64,000 nt of DNA. Origin: Protoeuglena noctilucae. Taxonomy: Eukaryota. The stretch spans positions 1,426,001-1,490,000 of the forward strand of contig OY253669.1 in NCBI GenBank assembly GCA_958009085.1, in the 5' to 3' direction. The notes beneath the pieces are model-generated. The model made no database searches, was not told the origin of the DNA, and saw only the letters and a program-made list of their open reading frames with translations. Below are positions 5,135-21,470 of this stretch, one piece after another. Numbering within the stretch: position 1 is the stretch's first letter; every line of letters starts with the position of its first letter. Position numbers and translations under genes: made by a program.

Positions 5135-7009
5135 ATGAGTTCGGCATCCCCGGGCGCCACGGGCGCTCGGCGGACAGCTTTCGCCGGGTACCCATCAGAG
5201 TCGTGGAGGGTTGATCTGGCAGCTGTGCACCGCGTTCGGCGTGGCGTGCGGTCCTGCGCGACGTGGCACGACACGCACGCGAGGGAAGAGCGTCTCCGCA
5301 TCAAATCGGACGCCGGGGATCCACCTGTCGTCAAGGCAATCAGGGACGGGGACGTGAAGCTGGTTCAGGAGCTCGTCGACCACGGCGCGTCGCTCGGGCA
5401 GTTTGGGGAGCTTCGGTAAGTTCGCATTCTTTGCTGCGTCCCTCTACGTTCGTTTTGACCCACACAAACACCTTTTCTTCTCGCCCTCTCCTTCTCTGAC
5501 TGCTCCTTTCTACGCTCCTTCCCTCTGCTTTCGTCCTGCTCCCAGAACGACGCCCCTGCACGTCGCTGTGGAGATGCGTCAGCTCGATGTGGTGGAGTTC
5601 TTGCTCATGCGCGGGAGCGGACCCAACGTCTGCGACGTGAGCCTCGCCCGGCCCATCCAGGTGCGCGCCAGCTGCCTCAGCTGCTTCAGTCGTCAGTCAA
5701 TCCTCCCTCGTCTGTTCATTGCTCGCCACCCATGATTCTGTCAAGTCGCACCTGCCCCAGGTGGCCTTTCGGGCGACGCCCATGGAGAGGCAAGCGTTCC
5801 GGCAGCTGCGCCAGGCGGTGGAGGACGTCTGCCGCGACGTGCCCGTCGCGCACCTCCTGCGGCCCGAGGAGTGGCCGCCGCACCGGCCCCGCAGCGCGCT
5901 GGTGCGGCCCAACTGGTGCCGCCGCATCGAGGGTTTCCCCGTGTCTGGCCCCACCCGGGCGCTGACGGCGGCCGTGGCGGAGCGGGCGGTGTCGCGCCTC
6001 GACCCCGTCAGCCAGGCGGTCGTCCGCATGCACCAGTGGATCGTCGAACTGCTGCTGGAGGCGAGTAGCCTGCTAAGGCACAGCTCGGATTGGCGCCGAT
6101 GCCCACACCCGCTCTCGGTCGGTCGCATCTGCGCACCTTGGATCTGCCGTTGGTGGATGCGACCTGCCCGGTGACCTGCCTGGTGTCGCAGGCCGGGGCT
6201 CAGCCCAACTGCACGACGTCGCCTGCGACCATGTACGAGACGGAGAATCAGGACATGCTGCTCCACACGGCGATCGAGGCGGGGCAGCTGGGGGTGGCCC
6301 TGTCGCTGCTGCTGCACGGCGCCAGCGCCAGGAACCGCGGGCGGCAGGAGATGCCCCTGCACCTGGCCTGCCGCGACGGCCTGGGACCCCTCGCGGTCGG
6401 TGAGGCGCCTCTCATTGCAACGCGGCACCTCATGGTCTCATCTCTGGTAGCTGCCACCGCACCTGGGTGCCCACGCCATGCCTGCATGTGTCACCTGCCT
6501 GCCGAGAAACACCTCAGTTCCAATCTCATCATGTACAGGGATGACGTGGTGCTTTCAGTGACGCCGCTCTCATCGCATCCATCCACCTGCAGTTCTGCTC
6601 GAGTGCGGCGCAAGCCCGACGGACTGCTCGTACATGCGCAGTTACACGGACCCTCCCTTCTCATACGGCACTCCTTTCGACTACGCCAACCTGCAGGGGC
6701 ACGCGGAGCTGGCAGGCGAGGCCGCGTGCCGTGTATCGCTCACAGCTGGGTGCCTTGTCTCTGCTCATGGCCCGAACATCGCACGTTGTCAACAGCGCCC
6801 TTCCAAGACCCGCATCTGCAGAGGCCATGCTCTTGGTCGGCGCTCGCTTTGACAAGAACCCGGGTGCGACGTTCGATGAGGCGTTCCGAAGGGCACCTGT
6901 CCCGAGTGAGGACGCTAGGCGTGCTTACCGCAGCGCATGGGAGGCGTACCGGGGCTACTGGCTGCGGCCGGGGTGCGCCGTCGGCGCCAAGGGCACCTGC
7001 GTGTCATGA
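5135..7009 (+). CDS. Ankyrin-repeat protein, C-terminal exons
   Basis: Spliced ANK motifs: PPVVKAIRDGDVKLVQELVDHGA | TTPLHVAVEMRQLDVVEFLLMRGSGPN | IVELLLE|AGAQPN..LLHTAIEAGQLGVALSLLLHGA..MPLHLACRDG..GTPFDYANLQGHAELA|EAMLLVGA; stop at 7009. Confidence 0.8.
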
Positions 7010-7402
7010 CGAAGCGTCTCCTTTGGCTGCGTTGCTTTTGTTTCCGACGTTGGGACTCTGGCACCAGCCACGCCTCACGCATTCCGGACACTCCACTATT
7101 TCTGGTTGATTGGGACGCATACTCTCTCGGCTTGGCTTCCTGTCTTAGATTTCATGTCAATCTACGAATCGCAGAGCACCCCAGGCCCTGGCAGCATCGG
7201 CGGCTCTGCACACTGGCAGCGCTATTGCTTTGCTTGTCCACACACTCTACCCGCCAGGCAGTGGCGAGGCTCTTGAGCAAATCTGCACTTTGAAAATTGG
7301 AACAAGACGCAAGAAAGACAGATGTCACGCATAACAGACGCAGCCGGCAGCTCCATCGATGGCTGCTACCCTCCCAGCGCCTCCTCCGAGCCTCGCGGCT
7401 CA

Positions 7403-8844
7403 TCATCCCAGCTTCACGCACACGCGCTCGGACGGCAGCGCGTCCCGCTCCCTCTCCGCATCCGCCGCGCCCCTTCTCATCTCGTGGTGCGTGGGCACCT
7501 CGCAAGGCACGCCCTGGGCACTCCACCCGCACCGCGCACAGCCCCACACGCGCCGCTCCTGGGTCCCTGCCGGGCCCTCGCATCCCTGGGTGCCAGAAGG
7601 CAGAGAGACAAATGAGCATTGCATTTCTAAACCAAAAACGACCAGAGAGACACCGGTTATGTTGAGCGCCATTGCCTAGTAACTAGCTTCGCGCATAGTC
7701 ACACCTTGAGCTGCCGGATGGCCCTGGCCGACTCCTCGTCTGGCACTTTGACCCCCCGCTCGTGCACCATCTGCGGCTCAGGGCGGTACTTGACGCACAC
7801 GCGACGGGACGCGCCGCCCGCCACGTCGTGGGTGGGGTGGGCGCACGGCTGGCCCTTGTCTGCCCACCCACACCCGGCGCAGCCCCACGGGCGCTCCTCC
7901 GTCGTCCCGGGCGGGCCCGCGCAGCCCTGGGGAGCACAGAGACACGGTGACGGGGTGCAGCAGTCGAGTCAACAAGAGCAGTCCGCGAGGTAGAGAGTGA
8001 GGGGCAGAGGACAACGGCAGCCTCGCCAGCACCTCCTTGCAGCTGCACCCGCACATGCACCCGCACCTGCACCGTCCACCCCACCCGCACCCGCACACCC
8101 ACTCATGCTCCCTCACCGGCGGCTGCCGCAGCGTCCACTTCCGGTCCACGACATACGCCTGCTGCGGCCCCAGCCACCGCTCCGCCGGAGCCACCTCCTT
8201 CACGCACACGCGCTCGATCCCCGCACCCTCCACGGCGTTGCCCCGCCGCCGCGCGTCCTCCGTCAGCGCGGGCACGTCGCAGGGCGCCCCGTGGCGCGAC
8301 CAGTGGCAGAAGTGGCAGCCGAACGGCTCGGTGCGACCCCCAGGCGCGCCACGGCACTCCTGCGGGTCATGGCAAGCTTGCTTAAGGTCACATGACGCCA
8401 TGTCGGTGTTCAGTAAGCGTAATTGGGTCAAGTGAGCGTTCCATGCATGCACCCTTCCGTTCAGCCGGGACCCAAACCCTCACCTCGCTCCCATCGGTCC
8501 CATCCCTTTCGCGACACATGCAGGATTCGAACCTCAACCCCTAAAACCCCTCCACCCCCACTCGCCTTGCGCTGGATATCTACGACGCGGTCCACGAAGT
8601 CCTCCTCGCCCTCCCCGTCCTTCCTCTGCACCAGCACCCCCTGCGCGTGCACCCACACGTTGTCGCGCCCCGCCCTGACCTTCTCCTCCTCCACCTTCAG
8701 GCACACGCGGCGGGAGGGGCCGCGGTAGCCGGGGTCCTCCACGTGCGTCGGGTCCGCGCAGGGAGTGCCGCGGGCCGTCCACCCGCACCGCGCGCAGCCC
8801 ACGTCCGGGCCGGGGGGGTTGCGCCTCCCGGGGTACCGGCACTC
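7403..8844 (-). repeat. Four tandem exon-encoded Cys/Trp/His protein modules (exons 8844-8566, 8359-8117, 7926-7705, 7585-7403)
   Basis: Each exon starts [E/G]C and contains GCxxCxWxxxGxPCxxP(TH)...RVC[VL]K. Confidence 0.9.
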
Positions 8845-11800
8845 CTGCGGGGGTGGGTTGGGGCGCGTGGGATGAATCCTTCATGAAATGATATCTGGCA
8901 ATTGGCGCTCTGGCGACGGCATTGCCACCACGCGCCATTGCTGGGACGCCCACGCATTGTGACATCCCGCGCCACCCCTTGCTTACCTCGGGCTGTTTGA
9001 AGGCCCACGCCTCCTCCATCGTCCGCACCACCACGCCCCGCGTGCCAAACTTGCGCGGCTGCATGCCCTCCACATACTGGAAAGCCCCCAGGTCCCCCAG
9101 ACCCAGCACCGCGCCCTGCACGTCGCCACGGGCGCTCTTCTTGCTCTGCCCGGCCTGCGGGGTGACAGAGAGGGGACGAAGCGGTCACATGCATGGCGCT
9201 GTAAGGGGGAGTCACAATCATCGTGCTATCGTTTTGCCCACAAATGCTGGGTCACCCTCAGCTCCCCTTGCATTCCTCATACAGACACTCACCGTCACCC
9301 TAACCCTCACCCTCGCCCTCGCCGATGCCTATGCCACATCACACCCTTCTCATACACTCACCCTGGCCCCCATGTGCTGCGCCGTGCCAGGCTCCTTGGG
9401 CCTCATGCCCCCCTCCTCCACCGGCCTCATCTGGCCGTACACCTTGTCCTCCCTCCGCATCTTGGCCATCATGTCGAGATAGAAGGCCCGGCTCTGCACG
9501 CGCTCCTGCCGAGCACGCGGAGCATGGCGGAGTGGGAAGGAGGAGCGACGCAGCACCATGCGTGCAACGCATGATGGGGTGGGAACGAGGGGCAAGGTGG
9601 GAGGGCATCGCAAGGAAGAGCTCATCCCTATGACTGACTGTGGCTGTCGCCAGGCTCACGTCCTCACCCCCCTCAATGACGTCCCCATCGCTTTTCAAAA
9701 AAGCACCCCTCACCTCCCTCATCCGCTCCAGCCGCCGCTCCTCGCGCTGCCCCGCGTCGTCGTAGGCCCCCTGCCGCAGCCTCTGCTTCACGGCGTGTCG
9801 CCTCTTCATGTCCGCACGCGTGCCCTTGGGGCCCTTCCCCTCGCCCTCCTCAAACGCCCGGAGCATCTGCAGCACCTGCGATTTGAGGAGAGCAAAGGGT
9901 GATACTCACAAGCACGACTGGGGTAGGAATGGCACACGAGAGCCAGTCAAGCACCACTGTGCACGAACACCCGCCCCTGCATGCCTCTCGCCCACACTAG
10001 CTGCGTGCCAGTGCTAGGGATCGGCAACAGCACACCACCCTTGCAAGGTCTCGCCTTCTTGTCCCTCGGCGCGACCTGCCTCAGCCATGCCGGGTCTTGC
10101 GTGCGCACGCGGTTGAAGACGGTGGGGTCGCGGAGGATGCTCGGGCACAATGCCGCGATGTCCTGCGAATGCCGAAAATGCGCAGCAACGCTGACGGACC
10201 TGGTGTCAGGAGCCTGACAGGGACGCACCGTGACAGACGCGTGTCTGTGCATCGTGACTGACACGCATCTGCGCATAACAACAGCTGCCACGTCTTGGCG
10301 GTCCCACGCACCTGGAAGCACCGCTCATCCTTGCGCAGGAGGTCCAGCACAGCGGAGGGGTCCGACAGGAAGGCGAACCCGCGGGGGAGGTGCGGGGTGG
10401 CGCCCCCACGAGCTGACCGGCGCGGCGAGGCGCGGCCGGGGGAGCCACGGGCGGTGCCCTCCTTGGCGGGCGGCCGCTGGGCTGCCGCGACGACTTCGAG
10501 GAACTGGTGACGGTCCTCCCTGCAGCGATGGGGAGGAGGAGGGGCAAGATGCGCGGTGGTGGGTGGCGTGGGGCAAAGGGCAGGAGAGGAACGAGAGGGG
10601 GAGCAGGAGGAGTGAACGCAGCGTTGTTAGGGAGACAGCATATGCGGGTGCATGGATTGGGAAGCGCAGGTGCGGAGAGCGCAGCGTGGCACTGCAGCCC
10701 AGCCCCTCGCGCCGTCGTCAGTCACCGGTACAGTGCGACCATCGCGTCCACGTCCTTGACTCGCGGGTAAGGCCACCGCGCGTCCCGTCTCGCAAAGACC
10801 ATCGACGCGTGCGCCTCCTTCCGGGCCTTGCGCGCCGACGGGGCCGGGCCGTGGCCCTCCCGCAGGTCCCGGCAGCGGTGGCACCTGCGTGAGACGCCGT
10901 GCGACCGCGTGACATGAGATGGATTGGCACGAGACGGGCTGGTCGACGCGAGGCGAGGGTCCAAAGCTGTGCGTCTTGGTCACTCACCGGCCGTCCGCCA
11001 AGTGCCACACCCATGCAATGCCTCTTGTCTGTCATCACTCACCGGCAGTCCGCCAGGTGGAACTCCTCTGGCACGGTGCTCCGAAAGGGGTTGGCTGCTT
11101 TGACCTCCGCCAGCTGACGCTCGAATTCCCCGTGAAGGCGGCGGAAGTCGGGGACGGGGGTGGCGCGGAACTCCGCGGGGCGCGCTGCGGGGGGGGCGGC
11201 GGGGGCAGGGCTTGAGGTGGTGGTGGGGCGGGGGCAGGCGTGGCGCTGCGGGGGTGGGAGGCGAGGTTCAAGGGTGCAGGTGAGGGCGGGAGTGGCACCA
11301 AAGGGTTCGTGGACTGTAAAAAAATGATATAGTTGCATGACCGAGGACGCAGCGTGCAGCCAGAGCCGGTTGTATCCATGGCAGCGGTCATCGCGTTCAC
11401 ACAGTGAGCACCCTCCACTCCTCTCTCACCCCGCTGGTGCGGCGCGGATGCCGGCCGGCTCTGCCTCCTCCTCCTGCTGCGATCTGAGGCTCTCTGCATG
11501 CGCTGCGGCATCTGGGCCTCCTCCAGCAGCTCAATCGCCCTCTGCAAGTGGGGGCGATTGAGGCATCGCGTGGGTGCGAGTGCAAGTGAGGAAAGAGGTG
11601 CAGCGGGGGTGCGGGTGCGGGTGCGGGTGTGGACGCGCAGGTGGGTGTATCGGTGCAGGTACAAGTGCGCTGCGTTCATCCCAAAAATGCGAGGACGGTG
11701 CATGTGCGTGTGCAAACACGCATGCGCCTGCGTGTGCAACTCCCCCCCTCGCCTCTCGCAGCTTGGCCTTGCGCCTCTCCATGTCGGCCATCATCGACTC

Positions 11801-14800
11801 GAACCGCTCTTCCTTGACCGACAGCGGCACGGGGGCGGCGCGGAAGGGTCGCTGGAATCGATTGGGGTCCCTTGCCCGCCTGGCCCACTCCTCCCTCTGC
11901 CTCTTCCTCCACTTGTCCCGTTCCGCGAACGAGAAGGGCTGCTGGATTGCCTGCAGCCACGCCTTGCCCCGCTCCACCGCCTCCTCCCGCCGCGCCTCCT
12001 CCTCCGCCAGGATGGCCTCGTAACGCGGCTGCGGGAGAGGGACGGGATGCAGCGCAGTGAGTGGGGAGGGGGTTGAGGGGTGTTGGGGGAGTACAGGAGG
12101 GGCTGAGCGAAGGAGCAAGAGGGGCGAACAAGTGGCACAGCACGTAACAGGGAGCCTGCCTTGCCCCTCACCTCTACGGTGGACTGCGGGAGGGGGTTAG
12201 CCCGGAAGCAGTACGCCCTGGCTGCTTCCTCCTCCTGCCTGCGCAGCTCCAGGTCAAGCTCCATCTTGATCGTCGAGAGGGGCTTCCCTGTATGGCAGAG
12301 AGAGGGTCGAGGTGGTGGTACCATGCTGATGACATGCGGGTGCTGGCGGGTGCGGCTGTGCAGACGCTCGCGCGCGAGGAGGCAGGGTTTACGTAACCAA
12401 CCGCGTCTCGCCTTTCGCGCGGGAGTCGAAGCTGAAGGGCCTGGGCACCGTGGGCGGGGGCGGCTCGAGGGAGGCGGTGGAACCACGCACGAGGCGCAGG
12501 CGGCTGTTGGGGCCGGCCCCGGAGTGGTCGATGTCGATCTTCGGGACGTGCTCTGAGTAATGGGGGACGAAGCGGCCTTGCAGCACCGCCTCGCGCTCCT
12601 CGGGGGAGAGCAGGTCTGCGGGGCAAGGGGGATCGGGGCACGGGGGTTGAGAGGGAGTGGTGGTTGGGTCAGGGACAGGGGTGGAGGGGACGGGTGCCAG
12701 TGGGGCAGTGCGGACGGGTGAGGGTGAGGGGCTGAGGGAAGGAGTGCATGTGGCGGGGTCAGGACCGAGGAAGAGCGGGCAGGGGATGAGTCCTACCTGT
12801 GCCACTGACCGATCACCACGCTTCACGCATGCCATTCCATTCCACTCGACCATTCCACCCCACTCACCAATGACCTCATCCAGCGCGTCCCCGATGCGTG
12901 CCTCCTCTGCACCACCGTGGTCCTCCTCGTGCGCCGATGCCCTGGCGCTGACCGCCCGCCTGTGCCAGGTCGTGGGAACGACGTGGTCGTGGCCGATGTT
13001 CCGGCGGTACTCATCCATCCACTCGTCCTGGGCCTGCCACGCCCGCTCCAGGCCCTCCATGGCCCTCGCCTCCTCCTCCATCATCGCCATCACCTGCGAT
13101 GCGCCAAGAGGATTTCCACATGTCGAGCCAGCCACTCAAAGGCAGCCATGGGTCGCTGTGACTGTTACGGTGGGCGGCACTTGCGATGCTGCTGAGGGAG
13201 AGGCTCTCACCTTCATCCTCTCCTCGTCCTCTGGCGTGCCCTTGCCCCGCTTCCTGCCCTCCCTCTCCAGGTCGCTGTCGTACCCGCCCTCCTCGAACCG
13301 CCGCTGCATCTCAAAGGCAAGCTGGCTCAGGTGCTCCTGCCGCCGGCGCTCGTCGAAGCGGCCCGTGGCGATCGCGAGCTCCTCCTCCGTCTGCGTGACA
13401 GGGAAGCGAGGATCAGGGACACGTCCAGCGACCGTCAAGGTTCAGGACGACCGCCAAGACTGTAGCAGGGGCGAAGCAACACATCTCAGCTGTCCCACCA
13501 AGGCAGGAAAGCGACGGGTCAAGGACACCTGCTTAAGTGGCGCAAACGCCACCCGCCCAGCCGCCCCCGGGCACCCTTGCCACTCACCAGCGCGGTGCGC
13601 CCCAGCTCACGCGACCTCCGCACCGCCTTCTCGAGGCCCTCCGCCATGCCCAGCGCCACCGCGTCGATCTCGTGGACCGTGGCGTCGAAGGGACTCCCGC
13701 GGGGCCCGCGGCCCCGGCGGTGCGCGTGGGGCCGACCCTCGGTGTGGGGCGGGTCGGGACCACGCTCCTCCACCGACGCCGACCGTGCCGGCGGGGGTGA
13801 GCCCCACGTCACCCGCCCGTGGGGCGGCTGCGGAAGGCTGCGTCCGACGGCGCCTCTGCCCCCTGGCGCGCCGCCCTGTGCCAGCGACGTCGGCGACGCG
13901 GGCGCTGGCCTCGGGCCCGCCCACGCGGCTGCAGGAGCAGCGCCGGGGCCGGTGCGCCCGGGCGACGGCGATCGGGCCGCAACGGGCGCGTCCCAGGACG
14001 CGTTCTCCCAGGACCCTCGCGCGCGTGCACCCTGCTGTTGCGGGCTCGACCGCTCTCTGCCATCCCGCTCAGGGCCACCAACTCCCTCATCCCGCCCTCG
14101 CTGCGAACGCGGCGGCGTCCATGCGCCCCGCTTCGCCTTCGCCTCATCCCCCTCAGCCAGGTGCACGTCAGGGTAGCGTGGGTCGGACGCCACGTCAACG
14201 TTGGGGTAGCGAGGCGACCTGTCCCCGCCCCCGGCGTCCACAGAAGGGTAGCCGCGGCGCCCGGCGGGGTCGCGGCCGCCGGAGACCCGCGTCGGGGGCG
14301 ACGGAGACCTCGATCGGGAGGCGGGCGGGTGGTGGTGTCCCTCTGCGTGGTCCCGGTGCCGTCCGTCTGAGTGACCGTACCCGCGGGGCGGTGACCCGTA
14401 GGGGCCATGGGCGTGTGCGTCCGCATCGGGCACGCCGTACTCGTTCTCGCGCAGTCGGCGGCGGGCCTCGTCGACCGCGGACTGGATGGCGGCGGGGTCG
14501 GCGTGGCCGGCGCGGCGCTGGGGGGCGACACGCCCGGCAGAGTGGTAGTCGGCCAGGGCTGGGTCCGGGTGGTACCCCGAGGCGTGGTGCGACACGGAGT
14601 CCATGCGGCTCTTGGCCACGTGGGGCGTGGTGGCGGGGCGGACGGGCCGCAGCGTCGCCGGCAGCGGTGCAGGCCCAGTGGTGGGCTTGGCGGGGCTGCG
14701 GAGGGCGGCGACGGACGCGGACGACGGCCGAAAGGAGAGGGACTGTGGAACGGCGCCGGCCGTGTACGGCATCGAGGCGTCCGTGGCAGCCTGAGGGTTA

Positions 14801-17800
14801 TGGGGGAGCACTGCGGTCGCAATGTCAGCGCCAGCCACGTGGGGCAGCACATCACAGGCGATGCCGTGGACAGTGGTCGTGCGATGCGCTCACCTGGGCA
14901 GCCTGGATGGCCGTCTCAGCCCGGCGCGCCACCGAATCCATCAAAGCCCGCCACCCCGTCGCAGTCGCGTGCTGCGTGTGCAACGACAACAGCAGGCCTT
15001 CTAACCCGTCCGCCCGCCTTGGTAAGCATCAACACCACGCCCATTCATGTCCAGGGGTTCTAACAACATGTGCCGCCGAGCAAGTGCCCCCCCTCACCTT
15101 GTCTGTCGTGGCCACGCGTTGGAGCGTCACTCGGGCGGCACCTGCGCCCGTGAGCCCCTCCCTCCGTGGCACGCGGGCCGCCGCCGTGGACGACCGCTTG
15201 CCCGCACGCCTCGACTCCCCCAATTCCGGGGCGTTGTGCACGCGCTTGGCGAACTCCCTGTCCCGCATGCGACGCTGACGCTGCATGGGGGGCGCTGGTG
15301 CGTCACTCTTGCCAGCCATCGGCACGACCATTTGAAATGGTCAGTGCATCGCTCTATGCGACCGTATCTGCGCATCTGCACGCGCTCCCATCGCTCATAT
15401 GTCATGCGAGATGCATGCTCATGTTTGCATTTGTGATCCGTCGACCACCGCCTGGGTCCTTGCCTTCTCTTCCGCTTGCTGCTCGAGCTCCGCGCGCGCC
15501 CGCTCGTGCATTAGCATCTCCCGCTGGTGCCGGGTGTGCAGGAAGTGGTCGTCCGCCTGCGTCAGAGACCGAGGGGGACAGGATGAGTCGGTTGCTATGA
15601 TAACTACGATTCCTGTTCGTGTCGAGACACGTCAGGCGAGGTGCTATGTGAGCAGTTAGATTACATGCCACATGCAAGCAAGTGGATGCGTGCAAAGGAT
15701 ACAGCGAGCGCCAGCGTCGCCCCAGCCACCGCCATGCCTCACCAGCGCGGGGTGCAGGGCGTCGAAGGACATCTGCACCGGGGCGAGCGCCTGCACCTCT
15801 CGCGTCCCGCGCCGCGCCACGCTCGCTATGCTCTTCTGGCCTGTTAAGTGGTCCCCGTAGTTGTCCCTCTGGCCAGCCAGGTGGTCGGCGTAAGCGTCGG
15901 GCTCCTCGTGAGCGCGCATCGCCTCCTTTGCCACATCGTAGAAGCGACTGCCCGCCACGTCGCCGAAGTCACTGTACTCTGACTCGTCCGCGGGCGTGCG
16001 TGGACGTGCCCCATGGGAATCCAGTTGCATGGAAGGAGCCACGGCCCTCGCTTGGCCGACGCGGGCGTTGCGCTCCGTGGCAGGGGCGTGCCTGTCCGCA
16101 GCAGGGGCGTGCCTGTCCGCAACAGGGGCGTGCCCGTCTGGAGCATGGGCTTGCCGGCCCTCCATGCGGCCCAGACCCACGAGGTCCTGCTTGTCGCTGT
16201 CTGCACGGCCCTGGCCCCTCACAGGGTCAGCTCTCGGCCCGGAACCCCGTTCCCTCCTTCCATCGCCACCACCCGTCTCCTGCTCCCCACCCCCGCGCTC
16301 CCTCCTCCCATCGCCACGACCCGCCTCTTCCGGCGCCGCGGCCCCTTGTACCGGCCTGCGTGCATCGTCCCTCTCCCCGCCCCGCTCGCCACGATGCCCC
16401 TCAGCGGCGGTCGCTGGCGCCGCAGAGCGAGCGTCCGGCCCCGCGCGAGGGACAGGGCCCACAGCCTGCTCATCGCGCCGATGCGCTCCCCCCGCGCTCG
16501 CCGCCTTGTGCCCCCGCGCGGGCAGCGCTCCGGCCACCGTGGGCGCCGCGAGCGGTGCCGGCTCGTCACGCGCCCGCACGCGGCCAGCGGGCCCCTGGGC
16601 ACTCGGGACCCTTGCACCCGGCGCATCCCGGGCTGGCCCACGCACCGCGTCGCTCGAGTATGACAGCGAGTCAGCTGGGGACCCCGCACTCGGGGAGCCC
16701 TGCCGGGACTCGCGCCGGCTGCTGCGCCGGGCGCCAGACAGCGACGTCCGCGGCGCCTCCCGGGCCACGCCCCTGCCCTGCGGCGCGCCCTCTGCGACTG
16801 CCGGGGCTCGTGCGGCGCCACCCTGTGCCGGGCCCACCTGCTTTCGGACGTGCTCGGGCGCCTCCTGCGGCGACGGGGTCACGTCTTCCGACACGCTCAG
16901 GTCCACCCCGCTCGTTGCCGGCTCAGGGGTGCCCGCATGCGCACCGGGACTCACGGCGCGCCCAGCAGTGGCAGTGGCAGCGGACCCGACCCGCGCGTCG
17001 GCCCTGGCCTGCGCTCCTCCCGCAGCATCCTGCGCCTTTGCCGCAACGCCCTGCGCCCCTCCCGCGACGCCCTGCGCCCCGCCCTCGCCTCCTCCAGTCG
17101 CCGCGCCATCGACGTCACCCTTTGCATCCGTAGGCGCCCTCGCAACCTTGCCCATCGAATCTGCGGCCTCCGCACGCGGAGCTCCACCGGCTGCCGGTCC
17201 CGCAGCGGACTCCTTGGCCTTCTCACCGCTACGCTCTTGCGTAGCTCCAGGAACCACCGCCTCCCCCGCACGGTCGCGGCCTGTTGGGCCCTGAGCCGCG
17301 CCGGCCTTGTCCGCGCGTGCCTGGCTCGCAACAGCCGAGCTCGCGGCACCTTGCGGTACCTCTTTTACGAGCTGATTGGATGCCCATGCTTCCGATACCT
17401 TCCCACCCTTGCCACCCACAGGCGCGTCCGCCCCTCGTGCCCCCTTCCCGCTCCCGCCATTGCCGCCGTGGCTCGGCCCACCCGGCTCATCCTCCGAGTC
17501 TGACAGACCTGGGATGTGATACTCGCCACGGCCGCTCACCTGCCCCGGGCCACCAACCCCAGCCGTCGGCGGAGCCTTTGTCTGTCCAGCCGCAGCGGCT
17601 GGCACCTCCCTGGACCCTGCCGCGCCGCCGTCCGTGCCCTGCCGCTCGCTCTGCCTGGACTCAGGGGCGTCATCCTCGGAATCCGACAGCCCCGGGATGT
17701 GGTAGCCTTCGCGGCCACCCGCAGGCGCGACGCCGTACACCGGTGCCGTCCCAACGGTCGACGCCCGGGGTGCCTCCCCTCCCGCAGCCGCGCCCCGGCC

Positions 17801-19923
17801 GTCGGCCTTGGGCTCCCCCGCTGGGGCCACACCGGCAGTCGGCTTGCTCCCTGCGGCAAGGGGCGCCTCGTTCCCCGAGCCCGACAGCCCCACGCCAGGC
17901 CGCCCTGCGCCGGTGCGAGGATCCAGTCGACCGGGGACCCCGCCAGCCGCACCCTCCCTCGCAGCAGCAGGGCCGGGAGCTGCTCGGGTCCCCGCGGCGC
18001 TAGACTGCGAGACGGTGCTGTGGCCGGGGGCGTCATCGTCAGAGTCGCTGCCCGTCTCCACTGACGGAGCACGCACGGCGCCTCGGGGCCCGCCCCCAGT
18101 CGCGGCCCTGGGCGCGGGGCCACTGCCGCGTGCGGGCTCTCCCACCGTGGCGCGCCCATGTCGCTCCGGGGGCGCAGGACGGTCAGAGTCCGAGCCAGAG
18201 GCATCGTCATCGCTTGATGCGCCCGTCCGCGCCACGCCAGCCGCCTGCGTGCCACGCAGGGATGCGTCGGAGGCCGAGGTCCCCGCAGAATCGCCACGAA
18301 CGTGGGCCTGTGCGGCAGGAGGACGTGCCCTTGCAGGCACGCCATGCGCGGTGCCCTTGGGAGGGGGCGTGTCCTCCTCTGAGTCTGTAAGACCAACCGG
18401 CGCCCGCCCACTGCCTGCCGGGCGTAGCGCAACGGGCGCCCCTCGCTCGCCGCGCGCCGGAGCAGGTGCGGGCGCAGCAGCGGCACCGGTACCCTTCCCT
18501 CCAGCACCCTTGGGCGGAGGCGTGTCCTCATCGGAGTCTGTCAGCCCAGCCGGCGCCCGCCCACTGCGTGTGGCACTCGGCGGGACGGGCGCGCCCCGTT
18601 CGCCACGCGCCGGAGCCGGCGCCTGAGCCGGTGCGGGCGCGGCACCAGCAGCAGCACCCCTCCCGCCCACGCCCTTGGGAGGGGGCGTGTCCTCCTCTGA
18701 GTCTGTCAGACCAACCGGCGCCCGCCCACTGCCCGCAGGACCCGGTGGGACGGGCGCGCCTCGCTCGCCAAGCGCTGGTGCGGGCGCGGCACCGGCACTG
18801 GCATCCTTCCCTCCAGCGCCCTTAGGCGGGGGCGTGTCTTCCTCCGAATCCGTCAGACCAGCCGGCGCCCTTCCACTGCACGTCGCACTCAGCGGGACGG
18901 GCGCACCCCGCTCGCCGCGCGCCGGAGCAGGTGCGGGTGCAGCAGCGGCACCCTTCCCGCCCGCGCCCTTGGGTGGAGGCGTGTCTTTGTCTGAGTCTGT
19001 CAGCCCTGCCGGAGCCCGGCCACTGCCCGCAGGACCCGGCGGGACGGGCGCAACTCGCTCGCCGCGCGCCGGAGCTGGCGCCGGTGCGGACGCAGTAGCA
19101 GCATCCTTCCCGCCTGCACCCTTGGGAGGGGGCGCGTCCTCCTCTGAGTCTGTCGAACCAGCCGGCGCCCTCCCACTGCCTGCTGGGCGCGGCGGGACTG
19201 GTGCGCCCCGCTCGCCGTGCGCCGCAGCTGGCGCTGGTGCGGACGCAGCAGCGGCACCGGCACCCCTCCCGGCCGCGCCCTTAGGCGGGGGCGTGTCCTC
19301 ATCGGAGTCCGTGAGACCGGGTATGTGATAGGAGGGCCTCGGTGCGGCAGCCTGGGCGGAGCCGCCAGACTTGCTGGGGCCCGCAGTCACCCCAGCAGCC
19401 GGACGCGCACCAGGTGCTCGGCCGGACGACACGCTGGTGCGAGCTCCAGGTGCGGCCGGCCTTCCCCAATCGTCAGAGTCTGATGCTGAGAGGTCACGGC
19501 CTTGGGGTCCCGTGGGCCGCGACGCAGCCACCGCGCGGCCCGCCTTCTCCTGCTCCATCTCCCATGAAGTCTTCGGGGCTTTTTTGCGCTGCGAACACGG
19601 GCAAGCGCGCGGTCACAGGCGCGGGAAACAGCGAGGAGGACGCAGAAAGACGCTTTCCGCGCTCTCTCCCGTCCTCTGCGCCGCTGAACTGGCCGGCAGG
19701 AACGCGCCACATCCTATCATCTGCCATCGCCTCGTCTGATCGTATTCCCCCGCGCGGCCGCGACTCCTACCTCGAACTGGAACATGGTGTCGACGTCGGT
19801 CGTTTGTCCCGCCCGCATGCGCGCCTCCCTCATTGATAAAGTCTGCTCGGCAGCCCGACGCGCGACCTCGGAGTTTCCGAAGCGCTGGGCCACCTGCTCT
19901 TTGGCCCGCGCCAGGGAAGACAT
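7403..19923 (-). CDS. FAM161: Very large FAM161/UPF0564-family (centriole/cilium inner-scaffold-like) protein with N-terminal acidic repeats and four C-terminal Cys-rich repeats; about 23 exons
   Basis: UPF0564-type motifs TVPRPFSF, FRANPLP, QQPFSFAER, PFRAAPVP, FRATPVPDFRRLH, TVPEEFHL and RWPYPR across about 12470-10730. Exon phases can be joined without a stop from ATG 19923 (MSSLARAKEQ) to TGA 7403. The family call is firmer than the full extent of the model. Confidence 0.75.
18330..19335 (-). repeat. Coding tandem repeat, about 7 units of roughly 150-170 bp (GLTDSEEDTPPPKGAGG...GERGAPVP...SGRAP)
   Basis: Seven TDS[DE][EK]D[TA]PPPK cores in ORF 15656-19558; the repetition is also visible at DNA level. 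Confidence 0.95.
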
Positions 19924-20335
19924 GGCTACAGAGGTTTGAATGTCGCCTGCGACGGGCGACCCCACCGCGGTCAGATGCCCCCCGAACGGAGCCGCAAACA
20001 CGCAGTCGAGATACCACAGCCAGAACTGCGACGATTGGGCAGGCAGCACTTCAGCACATGCGCGGAGGCCCGCTTCACCATGTTGCTTGCGAGTCAATTT
20101 GTTCGGCGACTTCAGCGACTCCGAGCTCGCGTGGGGGTGGTACTGCACTTGATGAGCGTCAAATAGCGAGGGGGGACACTGCTAGGCCATTGATATACCC
20201 TCCACGCAATGCAAGTATCGGGTTAACAGCGCAGATGCATCTGACCAAGAGGTCGAGGCGAGAGGAGGTGAGAGCTGTGAACTAGTGCTGCGGTAGTCGT
20301 GAAGAAACTCTTCCACTCGGACCTCTCTCGCCACC

Positions 20336-21470
20336 ATGGTCGCACTCATGGGCGCCCTTGTGTGCCCCCCTGCTGCCCGCACCTGCCATCCCGCGGCGAG
20401 CATGTCTTCCCGGGCTGCCATCAGCAACTCCTCAGTGTCGCTGAGGGCGTTCGTGCCCCGGGTTCGCCCGGTGGCGGCCTCCCGGGCCCAGCTTCGGGTG
20501 GCCGCGAGCGCGGAGGACATCAGCTACGTGATGGTCAAGCCGGACGGCGTGCAGGTGACGCATTTCTCTGTGTCGTGCAGCCATCCGTGCATGCAGCGGC
20601 CCGGCATCGCCCTCAGCTCGCTAGTTCTCGGGCCGTCAGCGTCAGCCAGGAGGTCCGATGTCGGCGGTCGTGCGGCCTGGCGCTCTGTTCCCAGTGGCGA
20701 TGGGCTTGCATTGCAGTCTTCTGATCGCGACGCGCGCGAGTGCCCCTGGCGCGGTCCCTCGACGCCGGGGCAGCCGGCTAACTCAACACCCGTCTCGCCG
20801 CGCCATTTGCTGACCCGAACGACGCTGGTCGCATGCATGCATGTTCATGGCGTGCAAAACAGCGCGCTGCTTTGCTCCGCGCGTCGGGATACCTCGAGGC
20901 CGTGTGGCTCGGCCGACCTGTGACGCGACCGTTCCAGCCACCTTTTCTGCAGCGTGGCGTGGTGGGCGAGATCATCAGCCGCTTCGAGCGCAAGGGTTTC
21001 CAGCTCAAAGCTCTGAAGCTGTACCAGACGCCTCGCGAGGTCGCGGAGGAGCACTACAAGGACCTCAAGTCCAAGCCTTTCTACAAGGCGAGTGGTGCGG
21101 GGTGGTGCAGATCGTTTGCATCGCCATCCACACGACACGCGGTGTGTATGGACGGCACACCAACGCAATGGGGCCACGCGCGCAGGACCTGGTGGACTAC
21201 ATCGTGTCGGGGCCTGTCGTGTGCATGGTGTGGGGCGGCCACGGGGTGGTCAAGTCCGCGCGGCTGCTGATCGGGGCCACCAACCCGCTGGAGGCGGCCC
21301 CGGGCACCATCCGGGGGGACCTCGCCGTCGAGGTGGGCCGGAACGTTGTCCACGGCTCCGACTCGGACGAGAACGCCGTGCGGGAGATGAACCTGTGGTT
21401 CGAGGACAGCGAGGTCATCGCCTGGAAGCCTTCCATGATGCCGTGGCTGAGGGAGGAGGGGCGCTTCTAA
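20336..21470 (+). CDS. NDK: Nucleoside diphosphate kinase, probably plastid-targeted
   Basis: Ser/Ala/Arg-rich N-terminus, then [78 protein letters not shown], with the catalytic His. Confidence 0.97.

Follow-up and report, generated by a model that had tools for sequence, protein, structure and literature searches.

In a 64,000-nucleotide stretch of the green alga Protoeuglena noctilucae (assembly GCA_958009085.1, contig OY253669.1, positions 1,426,001 to 1,490,000 of the forward strand; this whole stretch is the window in what follows), a minus-strand FAM161 gene ends, on well-supported though pieced-together evidence, in four exons that each encode one copy of a Cys-rich core. Our preferred reading, to which we assign a probability of about 0.55, is that of a lineage-restricted, zinc-stabilised interaction module amplified fourfold on the FAM161 C-terminus. 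Its parts differ in strength: we hold with high confidence that the module is real, translated and constrained; metal binding by each core, putatively of zinc, is on balance probable from the residue pattern; and a multivalent docking role for the array is put forward tentatively. Scaffold proteins extended by small Cys-rich repeats are a familiar arrangement; the module itself matched no family in Pfam, among PDB sequences or in one metagenome scan.

Four cysteine cores behind phase-0 introns

The initial annotation had placed four Cys-rich units on the minus strand, each behind a phase-0 intron. A scan for acceptors with a long open frame behind them (exon starts) and for in-frame donors (exon ends) agrees with that placement, and the four peptides and the consensus given with it proved correct as written when re-translated and aligned. 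YAG precedes every exon start (9154, 8844, 8359, 7926 and 7585), and all four tail introns are in phase 0. The tail is laid out as follows.

9154-8987, minus strand: pre exon, with a YAG acceptor and the phase-0 donor GAG/GTAAGC; N-terminal half of repeat 1
8844-8566, minus strand: exon u1; Cys core 1 (8844-8695), followed by the N-half of repeat 2, whose motif lies at 8649
8359-8117, minus strand: exon u2; Cys core 2 (8359-8198, without the His) and a degenerate N-half of repeat 3
7926-7705, minus strand: exon u3; Cys core 3 (7926-7789), followed by the N-half of repeat 4, whose motif lies at 7764
7585-7406, stop codon 7405-7403, minus strand: exon u4; Cys core 4, two further residues and the stop

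The first Cys lies one residue after the exon start in all four exons and opens a core of ~50 residues with the pattern C-x(11-13)-G-C-x2-C-x-W-x3-G-x-P-C-x2-P-(T-H)-x(n)-R-V-C-[VL]-K. Fifteen columns are invariant in the four-core alignment: five are Cys, four Gly, two Pro and one Trp, and the other three are R, V and K. The 364-residue tail has 20 Cys, every one of them in one of the five conserved Cys columns, with none in the linkers or in the pre exon. By a hand calculation that takes ~15 invariant among ~45 shared columns, the odds of all six Cys/Trp columns being invariant by chance are ~1 in 1,000. Across all six translated frames of the window the loose motif C..C.W.{3,6}PC is matched five times, by these four units and by a fifth stretch elsewhere that is interrupted by a stop; when triplets were shuffled 20 times it was absent from 18 of the shuffles and matched once in each of the other two.

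A single relative with one module

A profile of the four cores, searched against 1.84 billion (1.84e9) representative proteins, gave four rows at E ≤ 1e-3. P0001 is the window's own u4 frame, and P0003 (323 residues, from the Logan/ENA assemblies; E 4e-8) is the sole true relative, with a single module at its C-end. P0003 keeps the five Cys, the Trp, G-x-P-C, P-T-H and R-x-C-V-K as well as the motif of the N-terminal half described below; exon u4 is the closest match to its module (56 bits, 48% identity), and the pre exon matches its residues 218-277 (tblastn, E 4e-7). One open frame in P0003 covers the equivalents of exons C and D (listed below), of the pre exon and of the Cys core in the order of the window, with one module rather than four. 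This frame begins inside the exon C equivalent, so that a FAM161 domain ahead of it is putative.

The two remaining rows, P0002 and P0004, were discarded as spurious: both are long, repeat-containing proteins that lack the Cys pattern. Word-index searches with P0003 returned only P0003 itself at the 'near' setting and nothing at the 'longer' setting, which is weak evidence. A scan of Joint Genome Institute (JGI) metagenomes gave 599 pattern matches, of which three loci passed tblastn; these were 20-residue, off-frame matches on high-GC bacterial contigs and were rejected.

A probable longer repeat unit and how the array may have arisen

The segment ahead of each core is also repeated, with the motif [GH]x[RQ]GVxV followed by [IF]-[KR]-Q. 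Among the 127,996 residues of the window's six translated frames, the former occurs three times, at 9046 (in the pre exon), 8649 and 7764, and precedes the first Cys of the next core by 21, 29 and 21 residues, respectively; in P0003 it likewise stands 21 residues ahead of the core. The corresponding segment ahead of core 3 is degenerate. The repeat unit is thus likely to span 75-95 residues, made up of an N-half segment and a Cys core and split by an intron one residue before the first Cys. The earlier description of 'one copy per exon' therefore holds for the Cys cores but not for the whole repeats, as each exon also carries the N-half of the next repeat. Since every exon consists of the core of repeat n and the N-half of repeat n+1, the array starts in exon 9154-8987.

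Such an array was probably built by repeated in-frame tandem duplication of one genomic segment, reaching from inside the pre exon to just beyond the R-V-C-V-K end of the last exon. Tandem segmental duplication of this kind would place the same phase-0 intron position in every copy and would fuse, in the internal exons, one core to the N-half of the next unit.

Transcript support for the tail exons

Contigs of four metatranscriptome runs (X1-X4) were compared with window positions 6500-20500. Spliced contigs from X3 and X4 remove, with CT..AC ends, 8845-8986 (between the pre exon and u1), 7927-8116 (u2 and u3) and 7586-7704 (u3 and u4), the last in both runs, and three of the four tail introns are thereby confirmed by RNA exactly as predicted. 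The acceptor of u1, the donor of u2 (CCG/GTGAGG, through the joint to 7926) and both ends of u3 (donor AAG/GTGTGA; runs X3 and X4) are fixed in this way. X1 and X2 yielded only unspliced, genomic-like pieces across the tail, and may therefore represent DNA or pre-mRNA and are silent on splicing. Only constitutive junctions occur among the RNA contigs listed; as contigs lose rare forms, the absence of skipped joints is no evidence against exon skipping.

For u1 we predict the GC donor AAG/GCGAGT after 8566. This donor is credible because both RNA-supported GC-AG introns use a similar one: 12411-12288 in the same gene (AAG/GCGAGA...CAG, after a permitted one-base shift) and 6716-6821 on the plus strand, in the neighbouring gene (CAG/GCGAGG...CAG). 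The alternative for u1 is a GT donor after 8680, use of which would remove the N-half of repeat 2. Two of the nine RNA-supported joints listed are GC-AG with the donor G/GCGAG, a form also proposed for exon D (after 10055) as well as for u1, and GC donors of this form seem to be common in this genome.

Two further features of the RNA data were noted here. One X4 contig fits the window up to 8617 and continues for 225 letters that have no match in it; this loose end may reflect a chimeric assembly or related sequence of another organism. The intron between u2 and u3 (8020-8100) and that between exon F and the pre exon (9290-9360) contain imperfect CACCCG/CACCTG-type and GGTGAG-type microsatellites, and the very high summed X1 depth across 8835-9768 is probably due to such repeats and not to this gene.

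Linkage of the cysteine exons to FAM161

Upstream on the same strand lie the exons that carry or continue the FAM161 frame.

11531-12196, minus strand: open frame with the main FAM161-domain exon (exon start 12028, bounded by the RNA joint 12028/12172)
11039-11425, minus strand: frame of a further FAM161-domain exon (exon A, exon end 11043), with an RNA joint to 10884
10884-10726, minus strand: exon B, which continues the FAM161 frame; an X3 contig joins 11043 to 10884
10519-10312, minus strand: exon C, which opens a lineage-specific C-terminal extension; start backed by the RNA overhang from B
10162-10055, minus strand: exon D, with the proposed GC donor AAG/GCGAGA; splice sites by reading
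9875-9714, minus strand: exon E, a charged helical linker; splice sites by reading; weak P0003 match (E 0.68)
9505-9362, minus strand: exon F; splice sites by reading and frame continuity; no P0003 match found

The frame at 11531-12196 matches Pfam family PF10595 (FAM161A_B, formerly UPF0564) with E 1.5e-14 and 54.2 bits (cutoff 29.9) over profile positions 59-147, and that at 11039-11425 gives a partial match to the same family (E 1.1e-4, profile positions 193-233) which alone is below the cutoff; the host frames carry repeated F-R-A-x-P-[VL]-P motifs. Over the domain, two green-algal FAM161 relatives align at 55% (P0005) and 52% identity (P0006, a Raphidocelis subcapitata protein); both carry a precomputed PF10595 assignment, and P0005 joins the FAM161 domain to the conserved helix immediately ahead of the repeat. 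The X3 contig that joins exons A and B extends 12 letters into exon C, and this 12-mer is unique in the window (10507-10518). Further on, P0003 residues 20-44 match 10389-10315 in exon C (tblastn) and residues 52-79 match 10144-10061 in exon D (64% identity, E 6e-6), and the junctions read from exon C onward are canonical and in phase 0, with all frames and phases compatible. The attachment of the repeats to a FAM161 protein, as first proposed, is borne out by the upstream Pfam match, two RNA joints, the colinear P0003 and the canonical splice sites, but it is pieced together.

In animals FAM161 is a microtubule-binding protein of the centriole inner scaffold (PMC7021493; PMC11500687). The family also belongs to the connecting cilium, and FAM161A is a human retinitis-pigmentosa gene and a core component of the inner scaffold. 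The FAM161 proteins described so far are helical, with a C-terminal domain without an assigned role (PMC11500687), whereas the protein here would end in an additional helical stretch (exons C-F) followed by four Cys modules. A term search of the fly FAM161 study (PMC11500687) found neither zinc nor cysteine, and a literature search combining FAM161 with cysteine-rich or zinc finger gave, by titles and abstracts among the matches listed, no Cys or Zn domain in FAM161. The gained, then quadrupled, Cys module of this alga offers a natural experiment on the contacts of the FAM161 C-terminus.

The module motif is missing from P0005 and P0006. P0006 (Rsub_09744) ends soon after the conserved helix, and its last ~30 residues begin Q-G-C-G and are Gly/Pro/Ala-rich; this final stretch loosely resembles the start of the Cys core, and at this point the annotated gene may stop short or run into an intron. 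Exons C and D (10055-10519) form an extra conserved region with 52-64% identity to P0003 that is missing in P0005 and P0006. In an AlphaFold2 model of P0003, residues 22-88 form a helical bundle with block means of the predicted local distance difference test (pLDDT) of 58-84 (>75 across residues 31-70); a long helix comes next, at 145-184 (pLDDT up to 98). Foldseek of the whole model against the PDB gave no match at E ≤ 0.001 and only generic helical repeats.

Age of the duplications

Pairs of cores share 44-62% protein identity and 56-70% DNA identity, with 0.53-0.85 synonymous substitutions per synonymous site (dS), and the four tail introns have only 8-10-base chance matches among them. 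These dS values and the unrelated introns show that the duplications are old, which upholds the old exon duplication that had been suggested from the letters. With one copy in P0003 and four here, the tail offers a clean case of domain birth and of in-frame, exon-spanning tandem duplication. Comparison of the copies suggests that constraint is concentrated in, and confined to, a few columns, those of Cys, Trp, Gly and Pro.

Weighing the proposed zinc-stabilised module

Under the preferred reading, each core would fold around one metal ion, most likely Zn2+, with the C-x2-C knuckle and two of the remaining Cys/His as candidate ligands, and the four copies would together make a multivalent docking array that engages either a partner or the microtubule lattice. 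Compared with tandem arrays of zinc-knuckle or zinc-ribbon type (rubredoxin-like knuckles, C2H2 fingers), the units are alike in being small and tandem and in having a C-x2-C-G knuckle behind a hydrophobic or aromatic residue, with further Cys/His candidates; they differ in having a single C-x2-C pair, five Cys plus one His, a ligand spacing that fits none of the families tested, and a unit spacing of 75-95 rather than ~28 residues.

Several observations weigh against this reading. All four RNA runs come from a single study, and five of the ten junctions from exon A to u4 are without RNA support: among the contigs listed, no spliced contig removes the intron between u1 and u2 (8565-8360) and no RNA joint was found for C to D, D to E, E to F or F to the pre exon. 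Constraint is judged from five copies in total, four here and one in P0003; over whole cores the ratio of nonsynonymous to synonymous rates (dN/dS) is 0.44-1.06, and it reaches 0.96-1.06 for unit 2 against units 3 and 4. Unit 2 is without the His and without the Gly before the Trp, and on this comparison may be relaxing or decaying. The number of invariant Cys is five, an odd number. The N-half motif was defined after the sequences had been inspected, and pairwise BLASTP of the N-half/linker segments gave no hit or E values of 0.084 and 0.031, none of them significant, on account of which the N-half repeat is rated likely and not proven. The module had a pLDDT of 31-50 within an AlphaFold2 model of the whole P0003 (shallow alignment) and a mean of 45.1 as a cropped 99-residue domain, with 31-54 per 10-residue block in both models, and because of these low values neither model is informative on ligand geometry. 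Finally, the module has been seen in two organisms so far, a single relative carrying it; this narrow range is a lower bound, as the libraries searched hold eukaryotic genes mostly as fragments.

An alternative that we consider unlikely is that the core belongs to a known family of small metal-binding domains (treble-clef/zinc-ribbon, CW-type or C2H2-like) from which it has diverged beyond recognition by sequence methods, and that it binds zinc in a fold that is not new. The single C-x2-C-G knuckle, of the kind usual in zinc ribbons and rubredoxin-like sites, is consistent with it, as are the nine rows of a profile search against PDB sequences (E 0.23-1.8), all of them C2H2 linker-like around the knuckle, and the structural neighbours of P0003 in the ESM Atlas (model pLDDT 0.46), namely the rubredoxin-like ends of rubrerythrins, with template modelling (TM) scores of 0.29-0.36 that are under the tool's bar. 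Yet Pfam at E ≤ 10 returned no family for the four cores, the four raw frames or the P0003 module, in a search whose HMMER filters discard most matches above about E 0.1. The initial description of the module as unrecognised is thus sustained, zf-CW and the TAZ finger being among the families covered and no PDB sequence coming below E 0.2. Sub-threshold Pfam rows (BOF, E 0.053; CinA, E 0.14-0.26; TMEM247, E 0.11) were set aside as noise. The second His of a C2H2 finger is also missing, the core having a single His, absent from unit 2, and no significant profile or PDB match; zinc ribbons and rubredoxin-like domains require two C-x2-C knuckles on two beta-hairpins, and each core has one C-x2-C. 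An ESM Atlas feature search gave no match ≥0.8 for the P0003 module and no usable named match for unit 4. CW-type fingers and the CDGSH motif resemble the module in combining a conserved Trp with Cys that lie close together, but their ligand spacings differ from those found here.

Rather less probable is a metal-free tail, in which the cores would be flexible or beta-rich spacers with thiols serving in redox chemistry, in covalent cross-linking of the basal-body scaffold or in another structural role. The odd Cys count, the low confidence of both AlphaFold2 models of the module and the charged linkers are all compatible with this, but a C-x2-C beside Trp and Gly, with P-C and a His close by, is what metal sites typically look like. 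Stable disulfides are moreover unusual in the cytoplasm. FAM161 proteins are placed there by PMC11500687, and this location also argues against a metal-free tail.

It is very unlikely that the core instead binds an iron-sulfur cluster as CDGSH-type domains do, with three Cys and one His as ligands, an arrangement that would make the scaffold redox- or iron-sensitive. The likeness is one of pattern only: the spacings of the three central Cys and the His are one residue off CDGSH at two places, with a Trp after the second Cys and a Pro ahead of the third. Against it, no CDGSH family was matched in Pfam at E ≤ 10 and no such PDB sequence was found, and the His is missing in one of the four units (unit 2).

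We find it equally improbable that the Cys exons are part of another gene lying downstream, or that they are a poorly translated, decaying, functionless 3′ extension. This would fit the lack of a single RNA contig linking the FAM161 domain with the tail, the five unsupported junctions, the unspliced X1 and X2 pieces, the dN/dS of ~1 in unit 2 and the absence of the module from P0005 and P0006. Against it, RNA joints connect A with B, B with C, the pre exon with u1, u2 with u3 and u3 with u4, a single P0003 open frame spans the equivalents of C, D, the pre exon and the core, frames and phases are compatible, and all 20 Cys have been kept since an old duplication.

Returning to the zinc-stabilised interaction module, a bolder form of it, which we regard as doubtful, is that a new metal-binding fold was born at the FAM161 C-terminus within a small green-alga clade and went from one copy to four, providing metal-dependent attachment points. 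If true, the inner scaffold would have four evenly spaced, possibly redox- or zinc-sensitive attachments to a periodic partner, for example the triplet-microtubule wall.

Neighbouring features in the window

Upstream on the same strand, 15656-19612 (minus) is a 1,318-residue open frame with about a dozen tandem units of ~45 residues, which are acidic (Ser/Asp/Glu) and Pro- and Lys-rich; parts of it are covered by contigs of the RNA libraries. A gene with ankyrin-like repeats at 5358-7109 on the plus strand runs towards the FAM161 gene, 3′ end to 3′ end; contigs of its transcript extend to ~7213, which places the two ends within ~200 bases of each other.
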